DNA of 64,000 bases. It comes from an uncultured bacterium (GTDB taxonomy: Bacteria > Acidobacteriota > Thermoanaerobaculia > Multivoradales > JAHZIX01). Made by a program: the position numbers and the translations under genes. Shown piece by piece: positions 12,697 to 53,854 of this stretch. Below the pieces are notes generated by a model that made no database searches, had not been told where the DNA came from, and worked only from the letters and a program-made list of their open reading frames with translations. The stretch covers positions 32,001 through 96,000 of the forward strand of contig CBDUPA010000010.1 in NCBI GenBank assembly GCA_965368975.1. The letters are read 5' to 3'. Numbering within the stretch: the stretch's first letter is position 1; each line of letters starts with the position of its first letter.

Positions 12697-13101
12697 TCAC
12701 TCCTTCTTCGCCTTGACCAGCGCTCCGCTCTCGACCTTGACCAGCGCGTGGCGCCGATCGACGCCGGCCCGGCGGTCGATCACCTCCTGGCGCACGACAG
12801 TCAGCAGGCGATCCATCTCCTGGCGCATCTCGTCCATCTGCTCGCGCATGTTGAGAATCACTTCGACCCCCGCGAGATTGACGCCGAGATCGCGCGTCAG
12901 CGTCAGAATCACCTCCAGACGACGGATCGATTCATCGTCGTAGAGACGAGTGTTGCCGGCGCTGCGCACCGGCTCCAACAGACCTTCGCGCTCGTAGAGT
13001 CGCAGGGTCTGCGGATGGATCTCGAAGCGTTCGGCGACGGCGCTGATCATCAGGTAGCGTCGTCGGTCTTCTCGTTCAGTGACTCGCTTGCGTCGTGCCA
13101 A
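12697..13101 (-). CDS. hspR: HspR, MerR-family heat-shock repressor
   Basis: YLMISAVAERFEIHPQTLRLYEREGLL.P.RS.GNTRLY and DLGVNLAGVEVIL. Lies directly downstream of dnaK. Confidence 0.88.
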   Translation of the reverse strand: MARRKRVTEREDRRRYLMISAVAERFEIHPQTLRLYEREGLLEPVRSAGNTRLYDDESIRRLEVILTLTRDLGVNLAGVEVILNMREQMDEMRQEMDRLLTVVRQEVIDRRAGVDRRHALVKVESGALVKAKKE

Positions 13102-13164
13102 GGTTCCGGCCTCCCTCTGCTGGTTCCGTCTGCTGCGCTCGTTTCGGGGAACGGATCAGAGTGT

Positions 13165-13211
13165 AAGACAAACGGGCCGGGCGGACCACCTAGCGGTCAC
13201 GACCCGGCCCG
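13165..13211 (-). terminator. Hairpin / probable intrinsic terminator after dnaK
   Basis: Stem cgggccggg (13173-13181) pairs with cccggcccg (13203-13211). It is followed by tttgtctt on the minus strand. Confidence 0.55.
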
Positions 13212-13240
13212 AATGCTCTACCGTGGGTGAGGAGAGAAGA

Positions 13241-15154
<1,914 letters not shown>

Positions 15155-15243
15155 TGTGTAGCTCCTCCTTGGTCGTAGTCTGTTCGGTCCCGGTGGTGAC
15201 GTTCCGCGCTCGCGAATCGCCTGTTGCGGGAGCCACGACCACG

Positions 15244-19163: not shown

Positions 19164-20024
19164 ATGATCCAAGCCCCCGAGCCCCCTGCCTCCGACGCTC
19201 CCGACCTGGCGCCGCTGGCCGAACTGGTACGCTTGCTACGCGGCCCCGGTGGCTGCGCCTGGGACCGGAAGCAGACTCTCGGCGACGTCCGAGGTTACTT
19301 GCTCGAGGAAGCCCACGAGGTCGCCGACGCCCTCGACCGGCGCGATTGGGGCGCACTGGAGGAAGAACTCGGCGACTTGCTGTTCCACGTCGTCTTCACC
19401 GCCTCCGTGGCCGCCGAGGACGGGCACTTCGACCTCGCCCGCGTCATCCACCGCATCCATACCAAGATGGTCGATCGCCATCCGCACGTCTTCGAGGTCG
19501 AACAAGCCGGTACCCTGCACACCGCCGACGAGGTCAGCCGCGCCTGGGAAGAGCGTAAGCTGCAGCAAGAGAAGAAGGATCGCCCCCTGCTCGACGGCGT
19601 CGCCCGCTCGGTGCCAGCCCTGCTCGCCAGCTATCGCATGACCCAGAAGGCCGCCGGCGTCGGCTTCGACTGGGACGAGCCGGCCGAGGTACTCGACAAG
19701 GTCGAGGAAGAACTCGGCGAGCTGCGTGCCGAGATGCCGAGTGCAGCCACCAAGCCTAACGGCCCACCGGGCCCCGACCTACGCGATGGCCTGCGTGCTG
19801 AATTGGGCGACCTCCTCTTCACCGTCGCCAATCTAGCCCGCAAACTCGACATCGACCCGGAAGCCGCGCTGGCCGAGACGAATCTCAAGTTCCGACGCCG
19901 CTTCGGCCACGTCGAGACGCGGCTCAAGGAGCAAGATCGACGGCTGGATCAGGCGTCGCTGGACGAGATGGACGCGCTGTGGAACGAGGCCAAGGCACAG
20001 GAAGCACCAGAATCGCTCAGATGA
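19164..20024 (+). CDS. mazG: Nucleoside triphosphate pyrophosphohydrolase MazG
   Basis: LRGPGGCAWDRKQT, LLEEAHEV, EELGDLLF, RHPHVF, GFDW, ELGDLLFTVANLAR and KFRRRF. Confidence 0.95.
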   Translation: MIQAPEPPASDAPDLAPLAELVRLLRGPGGCAWDRKQTLGDVRGYLLEEAHEVADALDRRDWGALEEELGDLLFHVVFTASVAAEDGHFDLARVIHRIHTKMVDRHPHVFEVEQAGTLHTADEVSRAWEERKLQQEKKDRPLLDGVARSVPALLASYRMTQKAAGVGFDWDEPAEVLDKVEEELGELRAEMPSAATKPNGPPGPDLRDGLRAELGDLLFTVANLARKLDIDPEAALAETNLKFRRRFGHVETRLKEQDRRLDQASLDEMDALWNEAKAQEAPESLR

Positions 20025-26453: not shown

Positions 26454-29400
26454 TCAGAGCATCGCCTCCGCCGCCTTGCGCTCCAGCAGTCCGTAGCCAT
26501 CGGTATCGGCCAGCTGCCGCATCTGGGACAGCGTGTCTTCGGCGGCGCGCCGGCGGTCTAGGGAGACCTGGATGCGGCCCTTGACCAGGCGTGCTTCGAG
26601 CTCCGGCAGGCGCAGGCCAAGTTCAGCGGTGCGGCGCAGCACGCCTTCCAGGTCGGAAAGAGCCGAGTCGGCACTGCCCATGGCGGCTTTGACTTCGGCG
26701 CGCACGACCGCGACACGCAAGCAGATCTCAACCGTCTCGCTGTTCTTGCACAGGCGATCGGCTTCGTCGATCGCTTGCCAGGCGGCGCTCAGGCGGCGCT
26801 CGCGGCGCTGGATGGCGGCGACCACGGAAAGGGCTCGGGAGAGGCGGTCGGTGGCCCGCTCCTGGCGGAACTCGATGACCGCCTGTTCGGCTCGCTGCAG
26901 GGCCTCGCGGCCACGGCCTTCCTCATTCAGCAACTCGGCCAGAGCCAGCTGTGCAGCGGCAGCCTCGCCGGCTTCGCCGAGTTCCCGGCGCATGTCCAAC
27001 ACCTGCTCGTAGGTCTGACGGGCGCCGATCAGGTCGCCCTCGAGCACCATCAGTTCGGCTTCGCCGGCCAGGGCCGAGGCGGTCAGGCTGCGGTTGCTCA
27101 TCTCGCGACTGATTTCGAGCGCAGCCTGGTAGTTGCGCCGCGCCTCGCGCAGCGCACCGCGCGCTTGCAAGACGCGGCCGAGGTTGATCAGGGCCGACGC
27201 CTCGCCCAGACGCTGGTCGATGTCACGCCACTGTTCGAGCGCCTGCCGGTGCCCCTCCTCAGCGGCGACCAGGTCACCACGCTTGCGGTCGATGGCGGCC
27301 AGGTTGTCGAGGGCGGAGGCTTGCGCCGGTAGGTTGAGCGTCTCGGAGTAGAGCTCCAGGGCACGCACGAACTCGGCGCGCGCTCCCGCCAGATCACCGC
27401 GCTGCACCTGCATCACCGCCAGATTACTGCGCGCGTAGGCTTCGCCGGTTTCGTTGCCGGTCTCCTCACACAAGGCCAGCGCCTCACGGTACAGCTCCTC
27501 GGCCAGACGCAGATCGCCCTGCTGCTTGCGGATCAGCGCCAGGTTGTTGAGGACGAGCGCACCGTTGGCCCGGTCGCCGAGGCGCTCGAAGACAGCACGG
27601 GCGCGCGTGTAGTTCTCGAGCGCCGCCTCCAGGTCGCCCTGATCGCGCAGCAGGTTCCCCAAGTGGGTCAGGCCACGCGCGGCACCGGCTTCGTTGCCGG
27701 CCTCCTGGTAGAGGTCGATCGCCTCGCGACACAATGCGTAGGCTTGCTGCGGGTCCTCGAGTACACGCAGGGCAGCAGCCTGGGTGATCAAGGCGGCGGC
27801 GCGAACCTGACGGGCTTGCTGTGCTTCGGCCTTGGCGGCGGCGCGCTCGGCGGCACGCCGCTGGAGGTCGTAGTCGGCCAGGCGGGCGGCTGCCTCGGCC
27901 TCGGCGAGGTCGATGCGCGGGTCCTGGCCCACCGGTGCTGGCAACCGCTGCAGCATCTGAGCGGTGTGTAGACTCTCACCCGCCTCGCCAGCGGCCAGCT
28001 GTGCGGCGGCCAGCTGAAGACCGTATTCGAGTTCGTCAGGGAAGCTCTCCCACAGCTTCTGGTACAGCTCACGCGCAAGCTGCCACTTGCCGGCAGTTTC
28101 GTGGTAGCGCGCTTCGACCCACAGGCGCTCTTCTTCGGGCAGGCCCTCGGACAGCCGGTACGCACGGGCGGCGGCTGTCTGGGCTTCGTGGGTGTAGCCG
28201 AGCAGCATCCAAGCACTGGCCAGGGCATCGTGTGCCAAGGCATTGTCGGGCTCGGCGCGGGTCACTTGCTGCAGCAAATCGCGAGCGGCGGCCGCCTGGC
28301 CTTGCTGCAGCGCAGCCAACCCCTGAGCGTAGACGCGGGCAACACGATCGTCGCGCGGCAGCAGCGAGCCGGGCATGCCGGCTTGCGACAACTCACCGGC
28401 GGAGGAACCGATGGTCTCTAGCACATGATGGGCCAGTTGGACCGCCATCGGTCGCAGGTTGTCGAGTTGTGCGCTTTCGGTGAAGGTGCCAACTGTCGTC
28501 TTCTCGCGGGTGCTCTGCAGGTTGAGGTTGAGCCGCACCTGCTCGGCACCCTCTTGGAGAAAGGCTCCAACGACCACGTAGTCGGCACCGGTCAGCAGGC
28601 GCACCTGCTCGAGAGCCGGCACCGGCAGGCCGGCGGAAGGTTCGAGCGCCAGATCTCGGCGCGCACGGGCGACCAGAGCACCGGGCACGACGCGCAGGTC
28701 GGTGCCGGCTTCGAGACCGTCCTTGAGCAGCTCGGTGAACGTCGACGACAGCCACTCGACATCCTGGGCCGGCGTCTTGAAACCGAGCACCGCCACAGAG
28801 GTCCGCGGCTCGACGGCGAGCAGCGAGACGTTGCCCAGCGTCGCTTCGCGCTGTCTCCACTCTTTGTACCGCTGGAAGCCGAAGATGCCGATGACCGCGA
28901 TCACCAGGACCATCACGGCGACCAGGGTCCACTCGCGCCGCCTGTCCTGACGTTCGTGCGTCTCGGAAGCGCCGACATAGGAGTCGCGACCACCGGTACC
29001 CGAAAGGCCAGCCGCGGCCAGGAGTTCTGGCGGCACTTCACCGGTACTCGGCGGTACGAAAACGGACCCGGCCATCGACGACGTCATGGCGGAGGGGTTG
29101 GCGTCGCCGGTATCTTCCAGGGCTTCCAGGACAGCCTGCGCCGACTGGTAGCGATCCTCGGGCTTGCGCGCCAGGCAGCGCAGGATCACGCGCTCCCAGC
29201 GTTCTTCGAGCAGCGGCGCGAATTCGCGCGGTGACGGTGGTGGTTCTCGTAGCCGCTTGACAGCGGTCGAGATGACGCTCTCCCCGGTGAACGGCAAGCG
29301 GCCAGTGACCATCTCGAACATCACGACGCCCAGGGCGTAGAGGTCGGCCGCTTGCGTCACCTCGGCACCCTCGACCTGCTCGGGTGCCATGTAAGCCGGT

Positions 29401-30653
29401 GTCCCGATGACGCCATCGGTGACGGTCACCGCCTTGAAGGCGTCAGCATTCGTGCTCATGCGCGCCAGGCCGAAGTCCGTGATCACGGCACGCGGCTCGT
29501 CGCCGTCGGTCGCCGGTACCAGCATAACGTTGCGGCTCTTGAAGTCGCGGTGGATGACACCGGCCCGGTGGGCCGCCTGCAGCGCCTCGGCAATCTGGCG
29601 CAGGATTGGCAGTGCCGACTCGGTCGACATGGCACCGTGGCGGTCGAGGTGGTCGGCCAGGGTCGGGCCTTCGAGCAGCTCCATGGTCAGGTAGATGACC
29701 GGCGAACGCCCAGCAAGGAGGTGGTGGGACACATCGTAGATGCGGCAAACGTTGGCGTGGGTCACCTTGCGCGCCAGGTGGATCTCGCGCTTGAATCGGT
29801 CGATGGCAGCAGCGTCCTGAGCCACGTCCTGACGCACGGTCTTGACCGCCACTCGCTCACGCAATTCCAAATCCTCGGCGGCGTAGACGTCGCCCATGCC
29901 GCCCTGAGCGATGAACTTGACGATGCGGTAGCGCTCACTGAGCACGTCACCGCCGCGGAACATCGCCTCGCTCGGCAGAGCCGGCCCGCGAGTTCCAGAA
30001 GCATGATCACCAGCAGTACCACGACCTCCAGGGCCGTCCAGAACGGTCGGATGGGTGTCCGCGATGCCACGCCCACCACCGCCGTGCGAGATCGGACTCG
30101 TGCTACCGGGACGAGCCGTGCCGCCCGGGCGCGCCGTGCTGTCGGCCCCGCGTGGCCGAGCGTGGATCGACGGCTGGCTGCCGGAGTCTGGCGCCAGAGT
30201 CGCCGTATAGCTGTCGTTCTTGGGCGCCTCCCGGGGGCGCTTGGGCGGCGTGATGGTGATGCTGGAACCATCGCGACCTGAAGCCGTAGCCGGAGGCGGT
30301 GTGATTCGCGTCGGGGTCTTCGCGGCTGTTGGCTTGGCAGCTGCGGCGCCAGGAGGCTGGATGCGCGGGGCACTGGCAGGAGCCTTGGCCGCAGGCGCGG
30401 GCGAGCTTGGTGCGCTCGGCGCCGGAGCTTGCGGCGCCAGAGCTTGCGGCGCCGGAGCCTGCGGTGCCGGAGCTGGCGGCACGGTGCCCGCTGACGGCGG
30501 CGACGCTCGGCGGCGCACCACGAACGCCTGCTGGCAGGAACTACAGCGCACACGAACGCGCTCACTGTCACCCGGCGGCAGAGCGAACTGCAGCCGCGTC
30601 TGGCAATGTGGGCACGTGACGGCGATGCGTTGGGCTGAGTTGGCGTCCGACAT
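26454..30653 (-). CDS. Zinc-ribbon (MJ0042-like) membrane Ser/Thr protein kinase with extracytoplasmic TPR array
   Basis: CPHC...CSSC, a Pro/Ala linker, then GGMGDVY, VAVK, HRDFKSRN, DFG and APE. One TM helix, a SVAVLGF (TolB-N-like) domain and many TPRs follow. Confidence 0.9.
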   Translation of the reverse strand: MSDANSAQRIAVTCPHCQTRLQFALPPGDSERVRVRCSSCQQAFVVRRRASPPSAGTVPPAPAPQAPAPQALAPQAPAPSAPSSPAPAAKAPASAPRIQPPGAAAAKPTAAKTPTRITPPPATASGRDGSSITITPPKRPREAPKNDSYTATLAPDSGSQPSIHARPRGADSTARPGGTARPGSTSPISHGGGGRGIADTHPTVLDGPGGRGTAGDHASGTRGPALPSEAMFRGGDVLSERYRIVKFIAQGGMGDVYAAEDLELRERVAVKTVRQDVAQDAAAIDRFKREIHLARKVTHANVCRIYDVSHHLLAGRSPVIYLTMELLEGPTLADHLDRHGAMSTESALPILRQIAEALQAAHRAGVIHRDFKSRNVMLVPATDGDEPRAVITDFGLARMSTNADAFKAVTVTDGVIGTPAYMAPEQVEGAEVTQAADLYALGVVMFEMVTGRLPFTGESVISTAVKRLREPPPSPREFAPLLEERWERVILRCLARKPEDRYQSAQAVLEALEDTGDANPSAMTSSMAGSVFVPPSTGEVPPELLAAAGLSGTGGRDSYVGASETHERQDRRREWTLVAVMVLVIAVIGIFGFQRYKEWRQREATLGNVSLLAVEPRTSVAVLGFKTPAQDVEWLSSTFTELLKDGLEAGTDLRVVPGALVARARRDLALEPSAGLPVPALEQVRLLTGADYVVVGAFLQEGAEQVRLNLNLQSTREKTTVGTFTESAQLDNLRPMAVQLAHHVLETIGSSAGELSQAGMPGSLLPRDDRVARVYAQGLAALQQGQAAAARDLLQQVTRAEPDNALAHDALASAWMLLGYTHEAQTAAARAYRLSEGLPEEERLWVEARYHETAGKWQLARELYQKLWESFPDELEYGLQLAAAQLAAGEAGESLHTAQMLQRLPAPVGQDPRIDLAEAEAAARLADYDLQRRAAERAAAKAEAQQARQVRAAALITQAAALRVLEDPQQAYALCREAIDLYQEAGNEAGAARGLTHLGNLLRDQGDLEAALENYTRARAVFERLGDRANGALVLNNLALIRKQQGDLRLAEELYREALALCEETGNETGEAYARSNLAVMQVQRGDLAGARAEFVRALELYSETLNLPAQASALDNLAAIDRKRGDLVAAEEGHRQALEQWRDIDQRLGEASALINLGRVLQARGALREARRNYQAALEISREMSNRSLTASALAGEAELMVLEGDLIGARQTYEQVLDMRRELGEAGEAAAAQLALAELLNEEGRGREALQRAEQAVIEFRQERATDRLSRALSVVAAIQRRERRLSAAWQAIDEADRLCKNSETVEICLRVAVVRAEVKAAMGSADSALSDLEGVLRRTAELGLRLPELEARLVKGRIQVSLDRRRAAEDTLSQMRQLADTDGYGLLERKAAEAML

Positions 30654-44916: not shown

Positions 44917-47900
44917 ATGCTGTACACTGGGGCGCCTAGAGATCGGACTTCTATGCCCTGCCCTTTATACTGGTTGTGCCGCTCCCCATCGCGCTTCGCG
45001 TTCTTGGGTTTCCTCCTGCTGCTGCTGGCCTCACCCACAGCTGCCTTGGAACCCGACCGCCAGGTCACGCAGTACATCCACGACACCTGGCCCGTCACCG
45101 CGGATCTACACAGCGCCGGCCCGATCGAGATTCGCGCGTTGGCCCAGACAGGGGACGGCTTCCTGTGGCTGGGCACCTCGGCCGGCTTGGTCCAGTTCGA
45201 CGGTGTCCGGTTCCAGAGCGTCGACTTCGAGGACGTGCGCTTCGAGCGAACCGCCGAGGGCCACCCAGACGCCTGGGAAATCTATAGCCTGCTCACCGAC
45301 GCCCGCGGCACCCTGTGGATCGGGCATCAGCTCGGCCTGGCCTCACTGACCCCCGACGACCCCAGCCGGCAGCCGCAACGCCACCGCATCCCGAGTCGGC
45401 AGGTGCTGAGTCTGACGCAAAGCGGCCCGGACAGCCTGTGGCTGGGGACACGGCGCAACGGCGCCTCCAAGTACACTCCGCAGCTCGATTCCCTCCGCGA
45501 ATCGGCGGCAGGCGACCACTCGAGCGCCGCCGAGGGCGTGCTGGAACATAGCCTCCTGGAGCCCGTCAGCGTGCCAGCATTGGTCGAGGATCCACGGCGC
45601 CAGCGCCTGTGGCTCGGTACGACCAACGGCCTGACGGAGATCGACTGGAGCCAGCCTGAACCGTCGGTCGTCCGCACCTGGGGCCTCGACGACGGCCTGA
45701 CCACCCCGCAGGTTCAAGCACTCTGCCGTGGCGCCGACGGCAGCTTGTGGATCGGCACACGAACCGGACTGCACCGCCTGCTGCGCGAGAACCTGGAACC
45801 GATCCCCGAATTCGCCGGCACCAGCGTCACGGCAATGTATCGTGACCGCAGCAACGACCTGTGGGTCGGTACCGAGGACCAGGGCGTGTGGCTACTGCGT
45901 ACCGGCACTTGGCAGCAGTTGCCGCTCCCGAGCCGTCTCGATCCAACCACCTCCCCCCGCGTCTCCAGCTTCCTCCAGGACAGCGACGGCAGCCTGTGGA
46001 TCGGCACCGCGGACGCCCAACTGCACCAACTCAAGGACGGCCAGTACCGCAGTTTCGGACCAAGCGAAGGCATGAGCACTATCGGCGCTCGCCACGTCGC
46101 CGAGGACCGCACCAGTGGTGACATCTGGGTGACCACCAATGATGCTCGCCTCAATCTCATCCGGCGACAAAAGGTAGTGCCACTGCCACCGCCTCTGAAG
46201 CGTGCGCTGGAAGACCCGAACAATAACCAGCAGCTGAGCGCACTCTACCAAGCGCCTGACGGACCTCTGTGGATGGGTACACGCGATGGCGTCCTGTGGC
46301 GCTACGAGAACGGTGACCTGACCTCGATCCAGCTCCCTAGCACGGCCTATGGCGAGAAGGCCTGGGCACACACCATCGCACAAGACGCTGACGGCAACCT
46401 CTGGGTCGGCACGCTGCAGGACGGCCTCTTCAGGCTACGCCCGGATGGAACCGGTCATCAGCACTTCACCATCGCCAATACCGAGCACCTACCGCACAAC
46501 ACCATCCGCGTGTTGTTCCTGGACTTCTACCGACGGCTCTGGATCACCACCCTCGACGGTGTCACCTACTATCGTGACGGCCGCTTCGCCAGTCCCAACG
46601 ATCCTCTGCTCGAGCGCCTGCCTCGATTCGTCCACTCCTTCTATGAAGACAGCCAGCACACCCTCTGGATGGGCACCGAGGGTGGCCTCTACTGGCTCCA
46701 CCAGGGCCAGGTCGACTATCTCGATTACAGCCGCGGCCTGTACAACGACATCATCTACGCCATCGCGGCCGACGAGTATGGCCAACTCTGGTTCGGAACC
46801 CAAGCCGGAATCTTTTACATCCAGCAACCTGAGCTCAAGGCCTTGATGAACGGGGAGCAGCAGACCGTCACCTCGATCCCGCTGGCCAACCAGCAAGAAA
46901 TCGAGTGCTATGGCCCCCGTCCCAACATCGGTACCGCGGCACGCGACGGATCGATTTACTTCGCCACCACCAGTTCCCTGGTGCAGATCGATCCAGCCAA
47001 AGTTTCGCCGCCGGCACCACCGCCGATCATCATCGAGTCGATCATCGCCGACGGCGAGGAGCTCCCCCACCAGGAGACCATCCTCCTGTACGCCGGCGTG
47101 CGCAAGCTGGAGATCTTCTTCACCTCTCCTTACCTCAAAGAGCCCGGCCGACTGATCTTCAGCTACAGGATGCAAGGACTGCCACAAGGCGCGACCATCG
47201 CCACCGAACGCAAGGCAGTCTTCACCAACCTGACTCCCGGAGACTACCGCTTCGACGTCTGGGCCGAGCAACTCGACGGCGCCGACACCCCTATCACCTC
47301 GTGGCGGCTGCGCATCGAACCACCCTACTACCAGCGCCCGCCGGTGCAGGCCCTGGCTCTGCTGCTGCTACTGGTTGTCGGCCGCGGCATCTACCGCCTG
47401 CGTCTACAGCAGCTGCTGAGCCGCAACCAGGACCTCGAAGACACGATCGCCGAGCGCACCGCCGAGGTCATCGAGCAACGCGAACAACTGCGCCTGCACA
47501 ACCGGCAACTGGCACACGCCAACCAAGAACTGCAGCACGCCAACGAGCAGCTACAAGACCTCAACCGGCAGAAGGCGGACTTCTTGGCCATCGCTGCCCA
47601 CGACCTGCGCACACCCCTGGTCAACCTCAAAGGCTTCGCCAGCGAGACAGGCCTGCTGCTCGGACGACTTTTCGAGGTCGCCGCACCGGTTCTCGAAGAG
47701 CACGCGCCACACAGCCGCGAGCAGCTGCAAGAACTCCTGCACGAGGAGGCGCGAGAATCGCTCGAGTACATCCACAGCTCGACCGACCGCATGGACGCAT
47801 TGATCAAGGGCATCCTGATGCTGTCGCGCCTCGGGCGGCGCCAGCTGCAACTGGAGAGTGTCGACCTGCAGGAGCTGGCACGCCAGGTCCTGGGCAATCT

Positions 47901-48321
47901 GAGCTACGAGGTCGTGCGCAAGAAAGTGCGCGTCAACGTCGGCTCGCTGCCCAGCGTGACCGCCGATCTGTCCGCGATGGAACAGACGCTGGAAAACTTG
48001 CTGCGCAACGCTGTCAGCTATCTCGACCCGAGCCGTACCGGCGAGGTCGACATCCGCTCCGAACGGCACGCCGACGAAGTACGCGTCCACATCCGTGACA
48101 ATGGCCGCGGTATCGCCCCCAACCAACGCGACAAGGTATTCAAGATCTTTGGCCGCGCGGGGCGCAACGACGACGTGCCCGGTGAAGGCATCGGCCTCGC
48201 CTCTGTGCGCACCCTGATCGAACGTCACGGCGGGCGGATCTGGTTCGAGTCCGAGGTCGGAGTCGGTACCACCTTCACCTTCAGCCTCCCCGATCCCCCC
48301 GTCCGTGCGGTGACGAGCTGA
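44917..48321 (+). CDS. Sensor histidine kinase with Reg_prop beta-propeller and Y_Y_Y-like periplasmic region
   Basis: Repeated D.DG.LW.GT blades, FTNLTPGDYRF, a TM helix and coiled coil, AAHDLRTPL, NAVSY, DNGRGI and GEGIGL. Alternative start at 44953. Confidence 0.92.
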   Translation: MLYTGAPRDRTSMPCPLYWLCRSPSRFAFLGFLLLLLASPTAALEPDRQVTQYIHDTWPVTADLHSAGPIEIRALAQTGDGFLWLGTSAGLVQFDGVRFQSVDFEDVRFERTAEGHPDAWEIYSLLTDARGTLWIGHQLGLASLTPDDPSRQPQRHRIPSRQVLSLTQSGPDSLWLGTRRNGASKYTPQLDSLRESAAGDHSSAAEGVLEHSLLEPVSVPALVEDPRRQRLWLGTTNGLTEIDWSQPEPSVVRTWGLDDGLTTPQVQALCRGADGSLWIGTRTGLHRLLRENLEPIPEFAGTSVTAMYRDRSNDLWVGTEDQGVWLLRTGTWQQLPLPSRLDPTTSPRVSSFLQDSDGSLWIGTADAQLHQLKDGQYRSFGPSEGMSTIGARHVAEDRTSGDIWVTTNDARLNLIRRQKVVPLPPPLKRALEDPNNNQQLSALYQAPDGPLWMGTRDGVLWRYENGDLTSIQLPSTAYGEKAWAHTIAQDADGNLWVGTLQDGLFRLRPDGTGHQHFTIANTEHLPHNTIRVLFLDFYRRLWITTLDGVTYYRDGRFASPNDPLLERLPRFVHSFYEDSQHTLWMGTEGGLYWLHQGQVDYLDYSRGLYNDIIYAIAADEYGQLWFGTQAGIFYIQQPELKALMNGEQQTVTSIPLANQQEIECYGPRPNIGTAARDGSIYFATTSSLVQIDPAKVSPPAPPPIIIESIIADGEELPHQETILLYAGVRKLEIFFTSPYLKEPGRLIFSYRMQGLPQGATIATERKAVFTNLTPGDYRFDVWAEQLDGADTPITSWRLRIEPPYYQRPPVQALALLLLLVVGRGIYRLRLQQLLSRNQDLEDTIAERTAEVIEQREQLRLHNRQLAHANQELQHANEQLQDLNRQKADFLAIAAHDLRTPLVNLKGFASETGLLLGRLFEVAAPVLEEHAPHSREQLQELLHEEARESLEYIHSSTDRMDALIKGILMLSRLGRRQLQLESVDLQELARQVLGNLSYEVVRKKVRVNVGSLPSVTADLSAMEQTLENLLRNAVSYLDPSRTGEVDIRSERHADEVRVHIRDNGRGIAPNQRDKVFKIFGRAGRNDDVPGEGIGLASVRTLIERHGGRIWFESEVGVGTTFTFSLPDPPVRAVTS

Positions 48322-50718
48322 ATGAGACACCAGAGCCGATGCCCCCTGCGCACCTTGCTGCTGCCGACTTTGGTAGTCCTGCTGACTGCCTCGGTGTCCG
48401 GTCCTCTGTGGGCCCTTGACCCCGAGACGCCGCTGAGCGAGCTCCAGATCGACACCTGGACTCCCCAGGAGGGCCTGCCCAACAGCTCTGTGCCTGCGAT
48501 CGCCCAGGACACGCCGGGGTATATGTGGATCGGTACCGAACAGGGGCTCACCCGCTTCGACGGCCTCAACTTCCACACCCTGACCACCAAAGACAGTCGC
48601 GCACTACCCAGCAACACCATTTCGGCCATCACGCCGAGTCCGGACGGCAGCCTGTGGATTGGAACCCGCTACGGTCTGGCTCTGCTGCAGCAAGGCCGCC
48701 TGCTGGCGCCGCGCAACACCATGCTGCAGACCCCAATCAACGAAATCGAGCTGGACCTCGATCAGCAGCGGCTGTGGATCGCGTCCCTCAGCGGCCTGGC
48801 GGAGTACGACACAGAGACACAGACCGTCACCCGTCGCTACGAGCGTATAGAGAAGCTGCACGAGTTGACCGGACACCAGGAGCAACGCAGCACGACGCTG
48901 GCCGTGTTGCCCGACGACGACATTCATGCCCTGCTCATGGACGACGACGGCAGCCTGTGGCTGGGAACCAACAACTCCGGCCTCTTGTTGCTGCGTGACA
49001 GCAGAATCACCATCATTCCCACCGAACCCTCGAACAATCGCCCGTTGCTGATTCTCTCCTTGCAGCGACATCCGGTCCACGGCCTGCTGGCCGGCACGGT
49101 CGGGCAGGGTGTCTGGCAGCTGCGCGACGGCAACCTGGTTCGCTTCGAGCCGACTCTCGATACGCTGCTGATCGCCTTCGAAATGCTGACCGACCGCGAC
49201 GAGAACCTGTGGATAGCGGGCTACAACCAGATTGCGCGTGTGACCCGCGAGGGTCTCGCCGAAGTCATCGCCCCCCCCGTAGGACAGGCTGTCTACGCCC
49301 TGGCCGAAGACCTGCGTGGCGACATCTGGTACGGCACGACCGAAGGCGGCCTCAGCCGCGTGCGCGACCCACGCCGACGCCAGGGCCCGAGCACCCAGGG
49401 TGCCGAAGCACCGCTACCTCGGCTGGAACAGATCCTGGTCAACCGGGCAGAGATCTCCGCGGATGCCCTCAAGAGCCCCGTGTCCGGCAACATCGACCTG
49501 GCTTTCCGCTTCAGCATCTTGGCCCTGCGCGACCAAGAACAGCTGCGTGTCGGCTGCCGCCTGCAAGGGCTCGAAGACGAATGGCGTGCCCTGGGACCTC
49601 GCCGCGGTGTCGACTACACCAACGTACCACCAGGCTCCTACACGTTCGAGATCGCCGTCCGGCGCCAGGGCGAAGACGACGAAGTGACGCTCAGCCACGC
49701 CTTCCTCATCCCACGGCCGATCTACCGGACTTGGCCCTTCTACCTCGCGCTGCTCGCTTTCGCTGCCTTCCTCAGTCGTACCTTCTACCGCTTGCGGGTA
49801 CGGCGCGTCTTGCAGCGCAAGCGGCGTCTCGAGGCCAAGGTCGAGGCTCGGAAGAACGAGATCCTGAACCAGACGAAGCGTCTGGCCGACCTGCAAGAAC
49901 AGCGCGAGCAAGCGCACCTGCAGCTGCGCCAAGCCAACCGTGAACTCAAGACCTTGAACCGTGAGAAGACCGACTTCCTGGCGATCGCCACTCACGACCT
50001 GCGCACTCCACTGCTCAACGCCAAAGGCTTCGCCGGTGAGCTGCGGGTCGCCCTCGACGAGGTGCGCGCCGTGCTGCAGCCCGCGCTGGAGAACCTGTCC
50101 GAGCGGGATCGCCAGGAGATCGAGGCGATCCTCGACCAAGAGCTGCCCGAAACCATGGGCTTCATCGACTCGGCCGCCGACAGCATGACCCGGCTGATCG
50201 ATCCCATCCTCAAGCTGTCCCGCTTCAGCCGCTGCGAGTTGACCTTCTTGGAACTCGACCTCGACACGCTGGCAAGAAGTGTCAAACTCGCCCTCGAGCC
50301 TCTACTCGAAGAATCCAAGGCGCGCTTGGTACTCGAGCCGCTACCAACCATCCAGGCGGACCCGGCGGCCTTGGAAGAAGTTCTACGCCAGATGTTGCGC
50401 AACGCCCTGCACTACCTCGACCCCCACCGTCCCGGCGAAGTCCGCGTCTACGGTGACCGCGGCAAAGACACCACGACAATTCACGTGCGCGACAATGGCG
50501 TCGGCATCTCCGCCGAGCAAGAAGCCAAGGTCTTTCGCCTCTTCGGCCGCGGCGGCCAGACCAGCGCTCCCGGTCGCGGCATGGGCCTGGCCTATGTGCG
50601 CACACTGATCCAGCGCCACGGTGGCCACGTCTGGTACGTGTCGCAGCCCAAGCGCGGTACCACCTTCAGCTTCAGCATCCCCAATCAACCCCTCAAGCCC
50701 GAAGAGCATCTCATCTAA
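48322..50718 (+). CDS. Second, shorter beta-propeller/Y_Y_Y sensor histidine kinase
   Basis: GLPNSSV.AIAQD..GYMWIGT, YTNVPPGSYTF, a TM helix, ATHDLRTPL, DNGVGI and GRGMGL. Starts immediately after the paralog's stop. Confidence 0.92.
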   Translation: MRHQSRCPLRTLLLPTLVVLLTASVSGPLWALDPETPLSELQIDTWTPQEGLPNSSVPAIAQDTPGYMWIGTEQGLTRFDGLNFHTLTTKDSRALPSNTISAITPSPDGSLWIGTRYGLALLQQGRLLAPRNTMLQTPINEIELDLDQQRLWIASLSGLAEYDTETQTVTRRYERIEKLHELTGHQEQRSTTLAVLPDDDIHALLMDDDGSLWLGTNNSGLLLLRDSRITIIPTEPSNNRPLLILSLQRHPVHGLLAGTVGQGVWQLRDGNLVRFEPTLDTLLIAFEMLTDRDENLWIAGYNQIARVTREGLAEVIAPPVGQAVYALAEDLRGDIWYGTTEGGLSRVRDPRRRQGPSTQGAEAPLPRLEQILVNRAEISADALKSPVSGNIDLAFRFSILALRDQEQLRVGCRLQGLEDEWRALGPRRGVDYTNVPPGSYTFEIAVRRQGEDDEVTLSHAFLIPRPIYRTWPFYLALLAFAAFLSRTFYRLRVRRVLQRKRRLEAKVEARKNEILNQTKRLADLQEQREQAHLQLRQANRELKTLNREKTDFLAIATHDLRTPLLNAKGFAGELRVALDEVRAVLQPALENLSERDRQEIEAILDQELPETMGFIDSAADSMTRLIDPILKLSRFSRCELTFLELDLDTLARSVKLALEPLLEESKARLVLEPLPTIQADPAALEEVLRQMLRNALHYLDPHRPGEVRVYGDRGKDTTTIHVRDNGVGISAEQEAKVFRLFGRGGQTSAPGRGMGLAYVRTLIQRHGGHVWYVSQPKRGTTFSFSIPNQPLKPEEHLI

Positions 50719-51048
50719 ACCTGATCCGCTCGATCAAAAAAATAGACACAACACTTTACCGCAAGCGGCTAGTACTCATCCGGCAAACCGCAATCCGACC
50801 TTCCCGCCCGCCACCCTCCTCGCTTCATGGCCAAAAAATTACCCCACCTAATACTTAAGAATAAAACCTGCTTCAAACTTATATATAATTTTACACATGA
50901 ATAATCAGCCTGCTGAAGGCATATATATATCATGGCTCTTGGCAAGCCAGGGCGTATTGAAATAAACCGGCTTCCGTGCCCCTCTAATCTCTTTCAACAG
51001 ATCAATCCGCCCATCACGCCAGAACTGAAGGAAAATCCCAAAAAATCC

Positions 51049-51078
51049 TTGACATCAATAAATGAGGCGAAGGATAAT
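51049..51078 (+). promoter_or_regulatory. Sigma70-type promoter of the borosin locus
   Basis: TTGACA (51049-51054), 18 nt, GATAAT (51073-51078), with A-tracts just upstream in an AT-rich intergenic region. Confidence 0.65.
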
Positions 51079-51186
51079 CACGTATTGGCCACGGAGGAGG
51101 GACCTGGCCCAGACGCAATTCGGGGACCTAGTTCATCAAACCGCTGTCGATCTTGAGGAGGATCGACACACAGAGGAGGTGTACCC

Positions 51187-51423
51187 ATGTCTGCTACCCT
51201 GACTCATTTTCTGATCGAAGTCGGAGAAAACCCTCACAAGATGATCGAGCTGCAGCGTAACCCAGAAGAAATTCTGCGCGCTGCCGGCCTGCCGGCCGAC
51301 GCGGCCGACGCCGTGCTCCACCGTGATGCTGAACGCATCACGCATCTGCTGTCCGGCGAGGCCGAAGTCCTGCCGGCGATCTTCCAGATCACCACCGCCC
51401 TGGAGGATCTGCACGCTAGCTGA
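51187..51423 (+). CDS. Split-borosin precursor peptide (SonA-like borosin-binding domain plus core)
   Basis: GAGGAGG RBS. LTHFLIEVGENP..M...QRNPEEILRAAGL......AVLHRD.E.I..L matches the BBD/LigA-like helical pattern of SonA. The hydrophobic tail is EVLPAIFQITTALEDLHAS. Confidence 0.85.
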   Translation: MSATLTHFLIEVGENPHKMIELQRNPEEILRAAGLPADAADAVLHRDAERITHLLSGEAEVLPAIFQITTALEDLHAS

Positions 51424-51511
51424 AGCTCGTCGCCTGCTGCTCTCCTGAGCCCAACCGTCCCCGATCCGGGCTCTTTGAGCGGCTGAGCCGCGAACCGAAG
51501 CGAACTCGACG

Positions 51512-51554
51512 CTCCGGGCTTGGCGATCAAAGCCGGGCCCGGAGTTTCGTGTTT
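51512..51554 (+). terminator. Terminator-like hairpin between borosin precursor and methyltransferase
   Basis: 13-bp stem ctccgggcttggc / gccgggcccggag (two G-U pairs) followed by tttcgtgttt. Confidence 0.65.
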
Positions 51555-51618
51555 CTGGACGTACGATTCCCAGAATCTTTCGTGCGGCCACGTGCCGCAC
51601 CAGTAGGAGTCCCAGGGC

Positions 51619-52476
51619 GTGAGTGAAGACAACGGCAAGTCGGCAAGAGTTCAAACAGCAGGAAGTTTGTGTGTGGTCGGTACCGGCATACGTTCGGTCG
51701 GGCAGACCACGATTGAAACCAGAAACCTGATCGAGCAGGCCCGCGTTCTCATGTATCTCGTGGCCGATCCGATCACCGAAGCGTGGATCCGCAAGCTCAA
51801 TCCGCGCGCCGAATCGCTGGCGGACAGTTATCTCGACGGCCGGCGGCGCATCGAGACATACCGCGAGATCGTCGAGAGGATGCTGACACGCGTGCGCGAA
51901 GGCCACGATGTCTGTGCCGTGTTCTATGGCCATCCGGGCGTCTTCGTCTATCCGTCGCACGCCGCCATCCGGCAGGCACGCGAAGAAGGCTTCCAGGCTT
52001 TCATGCTGCCCGGCGTCTCCGCCGAGGACTGCCTGTTCGCCGACCTGGGCGTCGATCCTGGCGATCAGGGCTGCCAGAGCTTCGAAGCCACCGATTTCGT
52101 GCTGCGGCAGCGCCGCTTCGATCCCACCAGTCACCTCGTGATCTGGCAGATCGGCGTTCTCGGCAAGGTCTCCCACACGGCTGCCGAACGCCGCCGCCAG
52201 GGAAGCCTCGACGTGCTGGTCGACAGCCTCAGCCCGCACTATGACGACGACCACCCGGTCACCGTCTACGAGGCGCCGCAGTATGCCGTCTGCGCACCGG
52301 TGATCCACACGATGCCCCTGCGGGAGCTGCGCGACTCCGAGGTATCGGTGCTGTCAACCCTCTACGTATCACCGCTACCCGCGCGGCCCAACGATCCGGT
52401 CGTCTTGGAGCGGCTGGGACTACGACCGATGGAACCATCGACACCAGTCGAGACATCGACCCAGCCCGAAGCCTGA
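51619..52476 (+). CDS. Borosin peptide-backbone alpha-N-methyltransferase (OphMA/SonM-like)
   Basis: GSLCVVGTGI, LVADP, SY.DG..RIETY, FYGHPGVF, PGVSAEDCLFADLGVDPG..GCQSFEATDF, LVIWQIG and STLYV.P are borosin methyltransferase signature motifs. AGGAG RBS. Confidence 0.93.
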   Translation: MSEDNGKSARVQTAGSLCVVGTGIRSVGQTTIETRNLIEQARVLMYLVADPITEAWIRKLNPRAESLADSYLDGRRRIETYREIVERMLTRVREGHDVCAVFYGHPGVFVYPSHAAIRQAREEGFQAFMLPGVSAEDCLFADLGVDPGDQGCQSFEATDFVLRQRRFDPTSHLVIWQIGVLGKVSHTAAERRRQGSLDVLVDSLSPHYDDDHPVTVYEAPQYAVCAPVIHTMPLRELRDSEVSVLSTLYVSPLPARPNDPVVLERLGLRPMEPSTPVETSTQPEA

Positions 52477-52534
52477 ACAAGGCGTCCTTGGCCAGTGGTC
52501 GACGGCGGACGCCAAGGTCGACGACCAGACGACT

Positions 52535-53854
52535 TCAAGCCGCCAAGATTTCGCGCAGGATGGCGATGTTGTCGCGGTGGCCGGTGAGGCGGGCGGTAAC
52601 TCTACCGCGCACGGGGAAACCGAGCAGGTAGAGATCGCCCACGATGTCCAGGATCTTGTGGCGCACGAACTCGTCCGGGAAGCGGAGCTCGGTGTTGATG
52701 ACGTTGTCTTCGCCCACCAGGATGAAGTTATCGAGCCGGCCGCCGGAGCCGAGGCCCAGCTCGTTGAGCATCTTGACGTCCTTCATGAAACCGAAGGTGC
52801 GGGCCGGCGCGATCTCGCGCAGATAAGTATCGAAATCGCTCAGTTCAAAAGCGAAGAACTGGTCGCCGATCGGCGACGGATACCGCAGCTGGTAGGAGAC
52901 CGCGAAGCCATCGTACGGTTCGAGGGTCAGGCCTTTCTCGCCGTCGCCGCCGACATGGTAGGGACGATCGACCACCAGTTCGCGCCGCGGCGCTGCCTGG
53001 TCGACGACTCCGACCTCTTCCAGCTTGCGGCAGAACTCCAGCGCCGAGCCATCGAGAACGGGGATCTCGCCGTGCACCTTGATCAGTAGGTTGGTAACGC
53101 CGGCCGCGTGCAGGGCAGACAGCAAGTGCTCGACGGTGCGAATGCTCTCCCCACCGCGGCTCAACGTGGTCGCGTAGTCGGTCTCGGCGACTTCGTCGAC
53201 ATGAGCAGGAATGAGGGTGCCGCTGGGAATCGTCAGCATGTGGATGCCGCTGTCGGGCGGCAGCGGCTGCAGCACCATGCCGGTACGCGTGCCCGAGTGC
53301 AGCCCGAGGCCGTAGATCACCGTGTTCTCGCGCAGCGTCCGCTGCGGCAGCTCGCCAACACGTACCTGGGGCAGGCTGCGTGGCGCCTGCAACTTCGGCT
53401 GCAGCGTCTTCCAGGTCCCGGTATCGAGTGCTGTCGCCTCCAGCTCAGCCGCATCCTCATCGACTGCTGGCAGTTCGCCGGACGCGTCCCGCAACGTATC
53501 TTCGACGGCACCGACGATGCGCTCGTAGGACAGCGGCTTCTCGATGTAGTCGATGGCCCCGAGCTTGAGTGCACGCACCGCGGTCGACGTGGTGCCGTGC
53601 CCCGAGATCATGATCACGAGGGCCTCGGGATCGAGCTGGCGCAGGGCACGCAGCGTTTCGAGGCCATCGCGATCGGGAAGCCAGATATCCAGGAAGACGA
53701 GACAGGGCCGATGCTCGCGGTAGAGCTCGATCGCCTCTTCTCCACTGGCAGTGGTGAGAGCTCGGTAGCCCTCGTCTTCGAGGATCTGTGAGACGGTGGT
53801 CAGAATACCCGGCTGGTCGTCAACGATCAGGATTTGCTTACTCTCGGCGCTCAT
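52535..53854 (-). CDS. lpxC: Receiver domain fused to UDP-3-O-acyl-GlcNAc deacetylase LpxC
   Basis: REC: ILIVDD, FLDIWLP, ISGHG, IEKP. LpxC: QRTL, GLGLHSG, TVEHLLSAL, EIPVLDGSA, IAPARTFGF, RFPDEFVRHKILD..GDL and GH. Confidence 0.92.
   Translation of the reverse strand: MSAESKQILIVDDQPGILTTVSQILEDEGYRALTTASGEEAIELYREHRPCLVFLDIWLPDRDGLETLRALRQLDPEALVIMISGHGTTSTAVRALKLGAIDYIEKPLSYERIVGAVEDTLRDASGELPAVDEDAAELEATALDTGTWKTLQPKLQAPRSLPQVRVGELPQRTLRENTVIYGLGLHSGTRTGMVLQPLPPDSGIHMLTIPSGTLIPAHVDEVAETDYATTLSRGGESIRTVEHLLSALHAAGVTNLLIKVHGEIPVLDGSALEFCRKLEEVGVVDQAAPRRELVVDRPYHVGGDGEKGLTLEPYDGFAVSYQLRYPSPIGDQFFAFELSDFDTYLREIAPARTFGFMKDVKMLNELGLGSGGRLDNFILVGEDNVINTELRFPDEFVRHKILDIVGDLYLLGFPVRGRVTARLTGHRDNIAILREILAA

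Follow-up and report, generated by a model that had tools for sequence, protein, structure and literature searches.

The window, the whole 64-kb stretch of DNA analysed here, contains a minimal two-gene locus that we read as a type IV split borosin RiPP system, in which a small precursor would dock on a separate methyltransferase, be N-methylated in its tail and be released as a peptide; taken jointly, we put the probability of this whole reading at about 0.87. The locus, from an uncultured Thermoanaerobaculia-like acidobacterium, is an ordinary case of a peptide pathway that is widespread in bacteria. The two open reading frames of 78 and 285 amino acids described in the initial annotation are both present, and the ORF listing gives an ATG start for the precursor (51187..51423, + strand) and a GTG start for the enzyme (51619..52476, + strand). 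They are co-directional with a gap of 195 nt, and the window holds a single ORF with a borosin-binding domain (BBD) and a single borosin enzyme gene. The split, type IV-like reading proposed in that annotation stands in each of its checkable parts: the enzyme, its catalytic set, the SonA-type precursor and the conserved pairing of the genes. The features of the locus are as follows.

50719..51186, + strand: AT-rich leader of 468 nt (GC 0.47 vs 0.65 for the window)
51049..51078, + strand: sigma-70-type promoter-like site, TTGACA-18 nt-GATAAT, 11/12 matches, ~110 nt 5′ of the precursor ATG
51187..51423, + strand: precursor gene; BBD at about residues 1–57, then linker and core (residues 58–78); GAGGAGG ribosome-binding site 7 nt upstream
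51358..51420, + strand: putative linker and core EAEVLPAIFQITTALEDLHAS, residues 58–78, assigned by register to SonA
51376..51390, + strand: hydrophobic block AIFQI (A64–I68), predicted backbone N-methylation site
51511..51555, + strand: GC-rich hairpin with a 14-bp stem and 7-nt loop, then UUUCGUGUUUC, between the precursor and enzyme genes
51619..52476, + strand: borosin-type peptide alpha-N-methyltransferase, 285 aa; AGGAG 9 nt upstream of the GTG

The larger protein is a stand-alone enzyme without a fused BBD, core or other domain. Its best phmmer matches in the PDB are dbOphMA (E = 2.2e-61), OphMA (3e-61), SonM (6.5e-58) and MroMA (1.8e-57), and the cobalt-precorrin-4 methylase CbiF scores 1.9e-3, about 58 orders of magnitude weaker in E-value than the borosin enzymes. 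Alignment with SonM (263 aa) covers residues 15–271, and the last ~14 residues form an unconserved tail. There is a single Pfam domain, TP_methylase (PF00590; 1.8e-20, residues 17–218), the top NCBIfam model is YabN (48.8 bits; cut-off 525), and the precorrin NCBIfam models all fall far under their own cut-offs. No MazG domain was found in the enzyme by family search; a MazG gene elsewhere in the window (19164–20024) encodes a separate protein, 31 kb from the enzyme. Clustering with tetrapyrrole or MazG-N methylases had been named as the outcome that would overturn the borosin assignment, and this objection fails because the enzyme falls among the borosin N-methyltransferases, apart from the tetrapyrrole and YabN enzymes.

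The catalytic residues are all present. The enzyme contains FYGHPGVF at residues 102–109 and SAEDCLFADLG at residues 134–144, and YGHP and DCLFAD are the motifs of the antiSMASH BorosinMT rule (bioRxiv 10.1101/2021.12.24.474128); it also has DSY (Y71) and RIETY (R77, Y81). In an alignment of 25 enzyme sequences (A1), Y71, R77, Y81 and Y103 are invariant in 25/25, with Y103-G-H-P, E136-D-C-L-F-A-D142, E156, W176 and Q177 also invariant. The register places SonM Y58, R67, Y71, Y93 and F99 (SonM's own numbering) on Y71, R77, Y81, Y103 and F109 of the window enzyme, so the YGHP motif and Tyr/Arg/Tyr residues first picked out by eye include the equivalents of SonM Y58/R67/Y71/Y93. The SonM lock residues F99, E146, W166 and Q167 correspond, with an offset of 10, to F109, E156, W176 and Q177, all invariant in A1. 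Scores against PDB chains of SonM mutants agree with this register: the window enzyme gives 197.9, 198.1 and 197.2 bits for Y58F, Y93F and R67A and 199.5 for wild type, and the A1 profile gives 288.3, 288.2 and 287.0 bits and 290.8 for wild type. Since each mutant chain scores under wild type, SonM Y58, Y93 and R67 align to conserved identical residues. There is kinetic evidence for the importance of the SonM active-site residues (PMC8429565), and the enzyme of the window very probably methylates backbone amides of its precursor. The SonM top-clamp residues E173, Q178 and F179 are not conserved, and in the same register fall on K183, A188 and A189; because these differ, the SonM mode of core recognition is not transferable, and any exact placing of the methyl groups is tentative.

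Judged by its sequence, the 78-aa protein belongs to the SonA type of precursor and carries a borosin-binding domain. The only PDB matches at E < 0.01 are seven SonA sequences (6.1e-5 to 1.2e-4; residues 5–62), and the alignment originally made by eye over about 57 residues is borne out by the 58 that HMMER gives. The match is modest, with about 31% identity over the BBD by manual count on the HMMER alignment. A BBD profile of 67 locus-derived rows, from which the window protein was left out so that the search is not circular, finds this ORF alone among 1185 six-frame segments of the window (4e-14, residues 5–64), and no Pfam or NCBIfam model matches the precursor. A search with BBD/LigA domain HMMs had been suggested as a check, and here the LigA half did not work: Pfam LigA (PF07746) misses the window precursor at E ≤ 1, whereas the locus-derived profile detects it. 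LigA weakly matches 21 of 26 aligned relatives (best 1.6e-4), which reflects the known resemblance of the BBD to LigA, and we discarded it as a BBD detector. We also rejected the precursor as the LigA subunit of an extradiol dioxygenase, because it does not match the LigA model and none of the scanned window ORFs is a LigB.

The tail reported in the initial annotation, EAEVLPAIFQITTALEDLHAS, does correspond to residues 58–78 of the small ORF. By register it is equivalent to SonA D56–D71, the segment released as shewanellamide A, plus five extra C-terminal residues, and the methylated SonA residues L63 and I65 fall on I65 and Q67 respectively. In most of the 26 precursors a hydrophobic block occupies the same columns of the alignment, with constant spacing from the BBD; here the block is AIFQI (A64–I68), which is the most likely target of backbone N-methylation. 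The same annotation described the core as unlike that of SonA. The tail sequence does differ, but cores vary widely in the split borosin family, so a departure from SonA is expected, and this one has close relatives. The twin precursor P0001 is 95% identical, with the last 17 residues unchanged and its four substitutions all more N-terminal, and a few further relatives have a similar tail.

We propose that the first ~57 residues of the precursor would fold into a helical BBD that docks on the separate 285-aa enzyme, and that the C-terminal tail would then be threaded through the active site of this SAM-dependent enzyme and receive one or a few backbone N-methyls, most likely within AIFQI and in N-to-C order. 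Release of a short linear peptide of roughly residues 58–78 would probably fall to a protease whose gene is elsewhere in the genome.

The pairing of the two genes is conserved among related loci. An alignment-based scan of the genome collection gave 602 stretches, of which 586 were confirmed and the best 80 loci kept; a single-protein genome scan gave 59 pattern matches, none of them confirmed. A BBD ORF lies near the enzyme gene in 61 of the best 80 related loci (none was found in the other 19), and in 34 it is directly upstream on the same strand. Among the sequences found, the enzyme has a twin with 92% identity and the next is at 66%, and within the genome collection the closest enzymes, at no more than 59% identity, are in Acidobacteriota loci. 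Thermoanaerobaculia and other Acidobacteriota loci (L001, L016, L032 and others) are from the same organism class and likewise have the precursor upstream of the enzyme gene, although their tails are of other types, e.g. ...PPGC then four to five hydrophobic residues. A Ser/Thr kinase-TPR gene is nearby in 8 of 17 of these loci but not in the window.

The pair is probably its own transcription unit, with a promoter in the AT-rich leader. Within the leader are the promoter-like site and, at 50875–50892, a short AT palindrome, but promoter-like sites are not in excess in the interval 50600–52700 (1 vs a shuffle mean of 0.7), and the positional assignment of 51049..51078 as a promoter is tentative. 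An Rfam scan of 50500–52700 identified no family at threshold, with two sub-threshold chance matches (E = 0.74 and 0.8). The intergenic hairpin is strong (-37.2 kcal/mol, z = -5.97), and none of 200 shuffles folds as well; terminator-like sites number 1 vs 1.9 in shuffles and are not in excess. It is probably a partial terminator/attenuator or an mRNA-stabilising hairpin, and may raise precursor transcripts over enzyme transcripts.

Three other features were considered and set aside. An antisense ORF of 390 aa (51136..52308, - strand) overlaps the precursor and enzyme genes; it has no family match in a Pfam search and a third-position GC of 0.67 vs 0.77 in the enzyme frame, and on these grounds we take it to be a shadow ORF of a GC-rich genome. 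Horizontal transfer as a mobile cassette is unconvincing: a search for direct or inverted repeats flanking the pair gave only short two-copy matches, and the GC3 of the two genes (0.70 and 0.77) is slightly lower than that of the neighbours (0.81–0.85). An inverted repeat between the core-coding segment 51374–51392 and the enzyme WQ-motif codons at 52138–52156, complementary at 17/19 positions, is attributed to chance, at least this complementarity being reached by 12 of 60 dinucleotide shuffles.

[quoted passage not shown] There are also informative departures. The window tail is unrelated in sequence to that of SonA and exceeds it by five residues, the side-clamp loop that separates the first Tyr from the Arg has six residues rather than the nine in SonM, and the precursor gene is upstream of the enzyme gene, unlike in son. 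There is no GGDEF protein among the scanned window ORFs and no son-type cation-efflux neighbour, and the host is an acidobacterium rather than a gammaproteobacterium. The fungal type I fused enzymes OphMA and dbOphMA are the best-scoring solved relatives of the window enzyme, and their side-clamp region aligns without gaps and with a loop of equal length; in these the enzyme, BBD-like region and core form one autocatalytic polypeptide, whereas the window has two genes.

A different outcome is suggested by SamM1/SamA1/SamP of Shewanella amazonensis, which like the window pair is split and has a precursor with a BBD. In SamA1, the motif that is methylated is short and aromatic/hydrophobic and has an acidic tail after it, and the window tail is arranged similarly, with the hydrophobic/aromatic block (F66) and then E73 and D74; a single N-methyl in AIFQI could thus mark a peptidase cut, with release of an unmethylated, mildly acidic peptide (about TTALEDLHAS). 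However, the Sam cluster includes the gene for a pepsin-like peptidase, and its precursor tail is long and strongly anionic. The window shows neither feature: no PF00026 pepsin-like peptidase is present among 46 window ORF queries scanned, and the tail past the hydrophobic block is 10 residues with two acidic, unlike the long Glu/Asp-rich tail of SamA1. The block also registers with the methylated part of SonA that is kept in shewanellamide A. We consider this outcome unlikely, and for want of PF00026 and a long anionic tail we did not assign the locus to the SamA1/SamP type on the content of the 64-kb window, although a peptidase might be encoded distally, outside it.

Somewhat less likely still is that the window protein, P0001, P0127, P0131 and P0128 represent an uncharacterised small sub-family among the type IV precursors, marked by a 'P-x-hydrophobic-hydrophobic-Q' core, paired with a side clamp as short as that of OphMA and a top clamp that has diverged, and with methylation and maturation unlike both the shewanellamide and SamA1 routes. 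If so, methylation might include the polar Gln, followed by release by a non-pepsin protease, and this would be a new Acidobacteriota borosin scaffold.

Two sensor kinases are encoded upstream of the pair and a receiver-LpxC fusion downstream, and split borosin clusters most often have signalling genes, e.g. GGDEF, as neighbours (bioRxiv 10.1101/2021.12.24.474128). No conserved protease or exporter is beside the enzyme in 17 same-class loci, and the native role of the Shewanella system has been described as elusive. These observations are consistent with a methylated 78-aa protein that stays uncleaved and acts intact, for example as a regulatory or stress protein tied to the neighbouring two-component genes. 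We regard this as improbable, because kinase or receiver matches occur in only 3–4 of the best 80 related loci and are to generic domains, the receiver-LpxC and enzyme genes converge, the 468-nt leader with its own promoter-like site separates the kinases from the pair, and the single bacterial system followed to its product releases a peptide.

An RND pump is located 1.4 kb from the pair. The initial annotation noted neither a protease nor a dedicated transporter; the protease is indeed absent from the pair, as it is from the Shewanella son cluster, and the lack of a co-encoded protease is typical of type IV, but the pump was overlooked. Homologues of the window Lon, AcrB, MFP and ORF558 are present in none of the best 80 related loci, and the RND pump, sensor kinases and receiver-LpxC gene are not included as cluster members since this neighbourhood is not conserved with the enzyme.

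It is highly improbable that the locus is decaying or silent and no longer makes a modified peptide. The lineage is isolated, with one enzyme twin at 92% and the next at 66%, but both frames are intact with ribosome-binding sites, the catalytic and lock residues are all kept, and the 95% identity of the twin precursor with its last 17 residues unchanged fits purifying selection. That the enzyme is a tetrapyrrole/YabN-type methylase and the small ORF unrelated or LigA-type is effectively refuted by the distance to CbiF, the low YabN score, the absence of a MazG domain and the lack of LigA and LigB matches, even though Pfam gives only the generic TP_methylase, some database sources label enzyme relatives 'precorrin-3B methylase' or 'YabN', and annotations often call SonA-type proteins LigA domains.

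Peptides gain in protease resistance and membrane permeability from backbone N-methylation, and there is interest in discrete borosin methyltransferases as biocatalysts (PMC11751858, PMC10549244). Type IV is the commonest borosin architecture, with 746 of 947 non-redundant network sequences in a 2021 survey (bioRxiv 10.1101/2021.12.24.474128), and about 2,600 such clusters are already catalogued; the locus therefore leaves the understanding of borosins unchanged. We found no literature on borosins in Thermoanaerobaculia and only three papers that name both borosins and Acidobacteria, and the supplementary datasets of two bioRxiv surveys may list the locus or its twin. What is new is that an uncultured class with poor sampling has yielded a divergent pair of enzyme and precursor, with at most 66% enzyme identity beyond the twin among the sequences found, and the pair could be expressed to broaden the known substrate range.

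Both open reading frames of the split, type IV-like borosin locus proposed in the initial annotation are present exactly as described, each with a plausible ribosome binding site (RBS), and there is exactly one ORF with a borosin-binding domain (BBD) and one enzyme gene within the window. The pair and the features around it are as follows:

44917–50718, plus strand: tandem sensor histidine kinases (1134 and 798 aa; Reg_prop beta-propeller, Y_Y_Y), immediately upstream of the pair
51049–51078: promoter-like TTGACA-18-GATAAT, 11/12 matches, the one such site in the leader (468 nt, GC 0.47, between the upstream kinase gene and the pair)
51136–52308, minus strand: antisense ORF of 390 aa, overlapping both genes
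51187–51423, plus strand: precursor gene, 78 aa; ATG start, GAGGAGG RBS 7 nt before it
51511–51555: hairpin with a 14-bp GC-rich stem, then a U-rich run, between the precursor and enzyme genes
51619–52476, plus strand: enzyme gene, 285 aa; GTG start, AGGAG RBS 9 nt before it
52535–53854, minus strand: receiver-LpxC fusion, 439 aa (receiver at residues 8–117, full LpxC deacetylase at 171–437)

The precursor has the C-terminal end EAEVLPAIFQITTALEDLHAS, and the enzyme contains FYGHPGVF, SAEDCLFADLG, DSY and RIETY. The 390-aa antisense ORF matches no family, and its third-position GC (0.67) is below that of the enzyme frame (0.77); it is therefore treated as a shadow ORF of this 65% GC genome and not as a gene. 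Elsewhere in the window, a 699-aa ORF (13079–15178, plus strand) matches Pfam NAD-GH at 1.4e-206 and is likewise not a gene; it is an antisense shadow of dnaK, which lies opposite it at 13241–15154, minus strand (HSP70, 3.6e-266), and its codon-position GC is atypical (GC1 0.84, GC3 0.66).

The best 25 matches of the enzyme among all PDB sequences are all borosin N-methyltransferases, including the fungal fused dbOphMA (2.2e-61) and OphMA (3e-61), Shewanella oneidensis SonM (6.5e-58) and MroMA (1.8e-57), whereas the cobalt-precorrin-4 methylase entries that follow score 1.9e-3 and 2.7e-3. Pfam reports the generic TP_methylase alone (1.8e-20, residues 17–218). Of the NCBIfam models YabN scores highest (48.8 bits; cut-off 525), and the precorrin models are all far under their own cut-offs. 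The enzyme therefore groups with the borosin methyltransferases rather than with the tetrapyrrole or MazG-N methylases, and its original assignment stands.

Alignment of the enzyme with 24 homologues hand-picked from 120 listed matches shows that Y71, R77, Y81, Y103-G-H-P, E136-D-C-L-F-A-D142, E156, W176 and Q177, among others, are invariant. In SonM, the active site (Y58, R67, Y71, Y93) is supported by kinetics, and F99, E146, W166 and Q167 are described as lock residues (PMC8429565). The SonM segment F57-Y58-A-Q-N-G-E-V-K-N-R67-R-D-T-Y71 … L-Y93-G-H-P-G-V-F99 has its counterpart in S70-Y71-L-D-G-R-R-R77-I-E-T-Y81 … F-Y103-G-H-P-G-V-F109, so that Y71, R77 and Y81, the proposed Tyr/Arg/Tyr residues, lie opposite SonM Y58, R67 and Y71. 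SonM mutant chains in the PDB score below wild type against both the window enzyme (Y58F 197.9, Y93F 198.1 and R67A 197.2 vs 199.5 bits) and the profile of the 25-sequence alignment (288.3, 288.2 and 287.0 vs 290.8), a pattern expected only if each mutated residue is aligned to an identical conserved residue, and we conclude that it is. The loop from the first Tyr to the Arg, within the SonM side clamp (residues 58–68; PMC11751858), is three residues shorter than in SonM and equal in length to that of OphMA and dbOphMA, where the alignment is gap-free. By register, K183, A188 and A189 would correspond to E173, Q178 and F179 of the SonM top clamp, although the loop alignment is uncertain.

The enzyme belongs to a very large family: of 7888 candidates, 6329 proteins reach E ≤ 1e-10. 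The nearest relative among the matches listed, P0002, is 92% identical and the next 66%, and in a 113-sequence tree (the window enzyme, 80 related loci, and those of P0002–P0040 under 320 aa) the window enzyme and P0002 occupy a long branch. A genome scan for related loci with the single protein found nothing; an alignment-based scan gave 602 stretches, 586 of which were confirmed, and the best 80 loci (45–59% identity) were kept, 17 of them from Thermoanaerobaculia. The IMPDH encoded in the window points to that class as well: its identity to other sequences does not exceed 81%, and among its 120 listed matches the 10 with an organism name are all 'Thermoanaerobaculia bacterium'.

The precursor matches no Pfam or NCBIfam model, and its sole PDB matches at E < 0.01 are seven distinct sequences of SonA, the SonM precursor (6.1e-5 to 1.2e-4), aligned over residues 5–62 with ~31% identity by manual count. 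Among 1.84 billion representative proteins searched, 12 reach E ≤ 1e-3, and one of these, P0001, is a 95% identical twin with four differences, all N-terminal to the identical last 17 residues. We built a BBD profile by jackhmmer on every small ORF in the 80 loci, with the window row removed (67 rows left; some circularity is left, as rows were first recruited from the window protein). Against 1185 six-frame window segments it has exactly one match, the precursor ORF (4e-14, residues 5–64), in agreement with its proposed identity as a SonA-type BBD protein. SonA-type proteins are commonly annotated under Pfam LigA, which weakly matches 21 of 26 aligned precursors (best 1.6e-4) but misses the window precursor.

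The 26-precursor alignment combines the window precursor with 9 of the 12 representative matches (P0125, P0126 and P0130 were left out for length) and 16 of 66 BBD ORFs from the related loci. In most of these a short hydrophobic block starts at common columns ~7–9 residues past the BBD; in the window precursor it is A64–I68, AIFQI. SonA is reported to be methylated at L63, then I65 (PMC8429565, PMC10549244), and these map to I65 and Q67 when L55-S-G of the window precursor is set against L53-S-G of SonA. The first site is set by a bulky residue at SonA position 62 (Tyr, with Phe equally good; PMC11751858), and the methylated Phe of SamA1, the Shewanella amazonensis precursor, is described within a Phe-Phe motif; F66 is the sole aromatic residue of the window block. 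Given the block register, the SonA mapping and F66, methylation within AIFQIT is a reasonable prediction, with exact positions not predictable. The core was also considered distinct, which holds in that tails vary widely between related loci (…PPGC then hydrophobic residues, Trp/Ile-rich, (Pro-Asp-Pro)n, repeat cores), but the window core is not unique, because P-x-hydrophobic-hydrophobic-Q is common to its LPAIFQITTA and to three representative matches (P0127 LPLMVQLVSV, P0131 LPVFVQLGVA and P0128 RPIFVQSTVA).

Of the 80 loci, 61 contain a BBD ORF (66 ORFs in total) and 19 yielded none; comparison with homologous loci thus bears out the pairing. It is directly upstream on the same strand within 150 nt in 34 loci, whereas, of the 66 ORFs, 10 are directly upstream in the opposite orientation and 12 are > 1.5 kb downstream of the enzyme. 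The divergently transcribed ORFs (L024, L023, L020, L056, L062, L021, L047, L065, L029 and others) have tails of the '...AIKV/IKTK' type. In L004–L009, L012, L014, L018, L019, L025, L028 and L030 (cyanobacterial, with one locus from Anaerolineae) BBD precursors lie 1.1–3.1 kb downstream, and their tails run from a hydrophobic motif into Pro-Asp-Pro repeats, resembling the SamA1 anionic tail. Unusual precursors (L046 1047–1484, which is P0126; L058 5294–5986; L070 5426–5989; L023 9270–10022) include one ORF with a tandem double BBD-plus-core unit and several with long multi-repeat cores, such as QTIWAAQPQS or PQYVV repeats. Several Thermoanaerobaculia loci (L032, L038, L016, L055, L075) have tandem methyltransferase genes or domains; L075 5962–7551 has two TP_methylase stretches in one ORF, resembling the duplicated-domain type IX architecture.

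The hairpin at 51511–51555 is stable, with a predicted energy of −37.2 kcal/mol (z = −5.97; 0 of 200 shuffles fold equally well). Promoter-like (1 vs 0.7) and terminator-like (1 vs 1.9) sites are not above shuffles, so that promoter and terminator functions for 51049–51078 and 51511–51555 are tentative. No Rfam family is present in the pair region. A 19-nt inverted repeat (51374–51392 and 52138–52156, 17/19 complementary), which pairs PAIFQIT codons of the precursor with VIWQIGV codons of the enzyme, is equaled in 12 of 60 dinucleotide shuffles and is most likely due to chance.

Upstream of the pair are Lon and the two propeller-type kinases, the first stop codon of which abuts the second start codon. 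Downstream is the receiver-LpxC gene, convergent with the methyltransferase gene (58 nt between stop codons) and suggesting phosphorylation control of lipid A synthesis, then an RND pump (AcrB and membrane-fusion protein). Lon, AcrB and membrane-fusion proteins are beside related enzymes in 0 of the 80 loci; a kinase or receiver domain occurs there in 3–4. Separately, 8 of the 17 Thermoanaerobaculia loci (L016, L020, L022, L031, L033, L041, L054, L065; some may be orthologous and not independent cases) encode a Ser/Thr protein kinase no more than 3.5 kb from the methyltransferase gene, with TPR repeats in seven and the eighth ORF cut by a contig end; the nearest comparable window gene is at 26454–30653, ~20 kb from the pair.

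Two outcomes are documented for such systems: release of a methylated 16-residue peptide, shewanellamide A (PMC10549244), and, for SamA1, methylation that flags a site for a pepsin-like peptidase, releasing an unmethylated anionic tail. We favor a shewanellamide-like outcome here, with the SamA1-like route as the main rival. No pepsin-like peptidase was found among 46 window ORF queries, and no recurrent peptidase or transporter among 89 neighboring ORFs of the 17 Thermoanaerobaculia loci (an M23 peptidase, a MacB-type permease and an MFS transporter each occur once); the son cluster is likewise described without a protease (PMC10549244).

Borosins of type IV pair a discrete enzyme with a BBD-carrying precursor. 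This architecture is described as the simplest of the borosins and the most frequent, with 746 of the 947 non-redundant sequences in a network analysis (bioRxiv 10.1101/2021.12.24.474128), and a RODEO survey of 2699 enzymes, 3064 precursors and 2596 clusters suggests that it is the ancestral form (bioRxiv 10.1101/2024.01.09.574750). At the sequence level the window locus is type IV in every respect, as first proposed. The locus is real, correctly interpreted and a routine addition to a well-catalogued RiPP class, with minor unusual points in its under-sampled host class, isolated enzyme lineage, small core sub-family and very stable intergenic hairpin.
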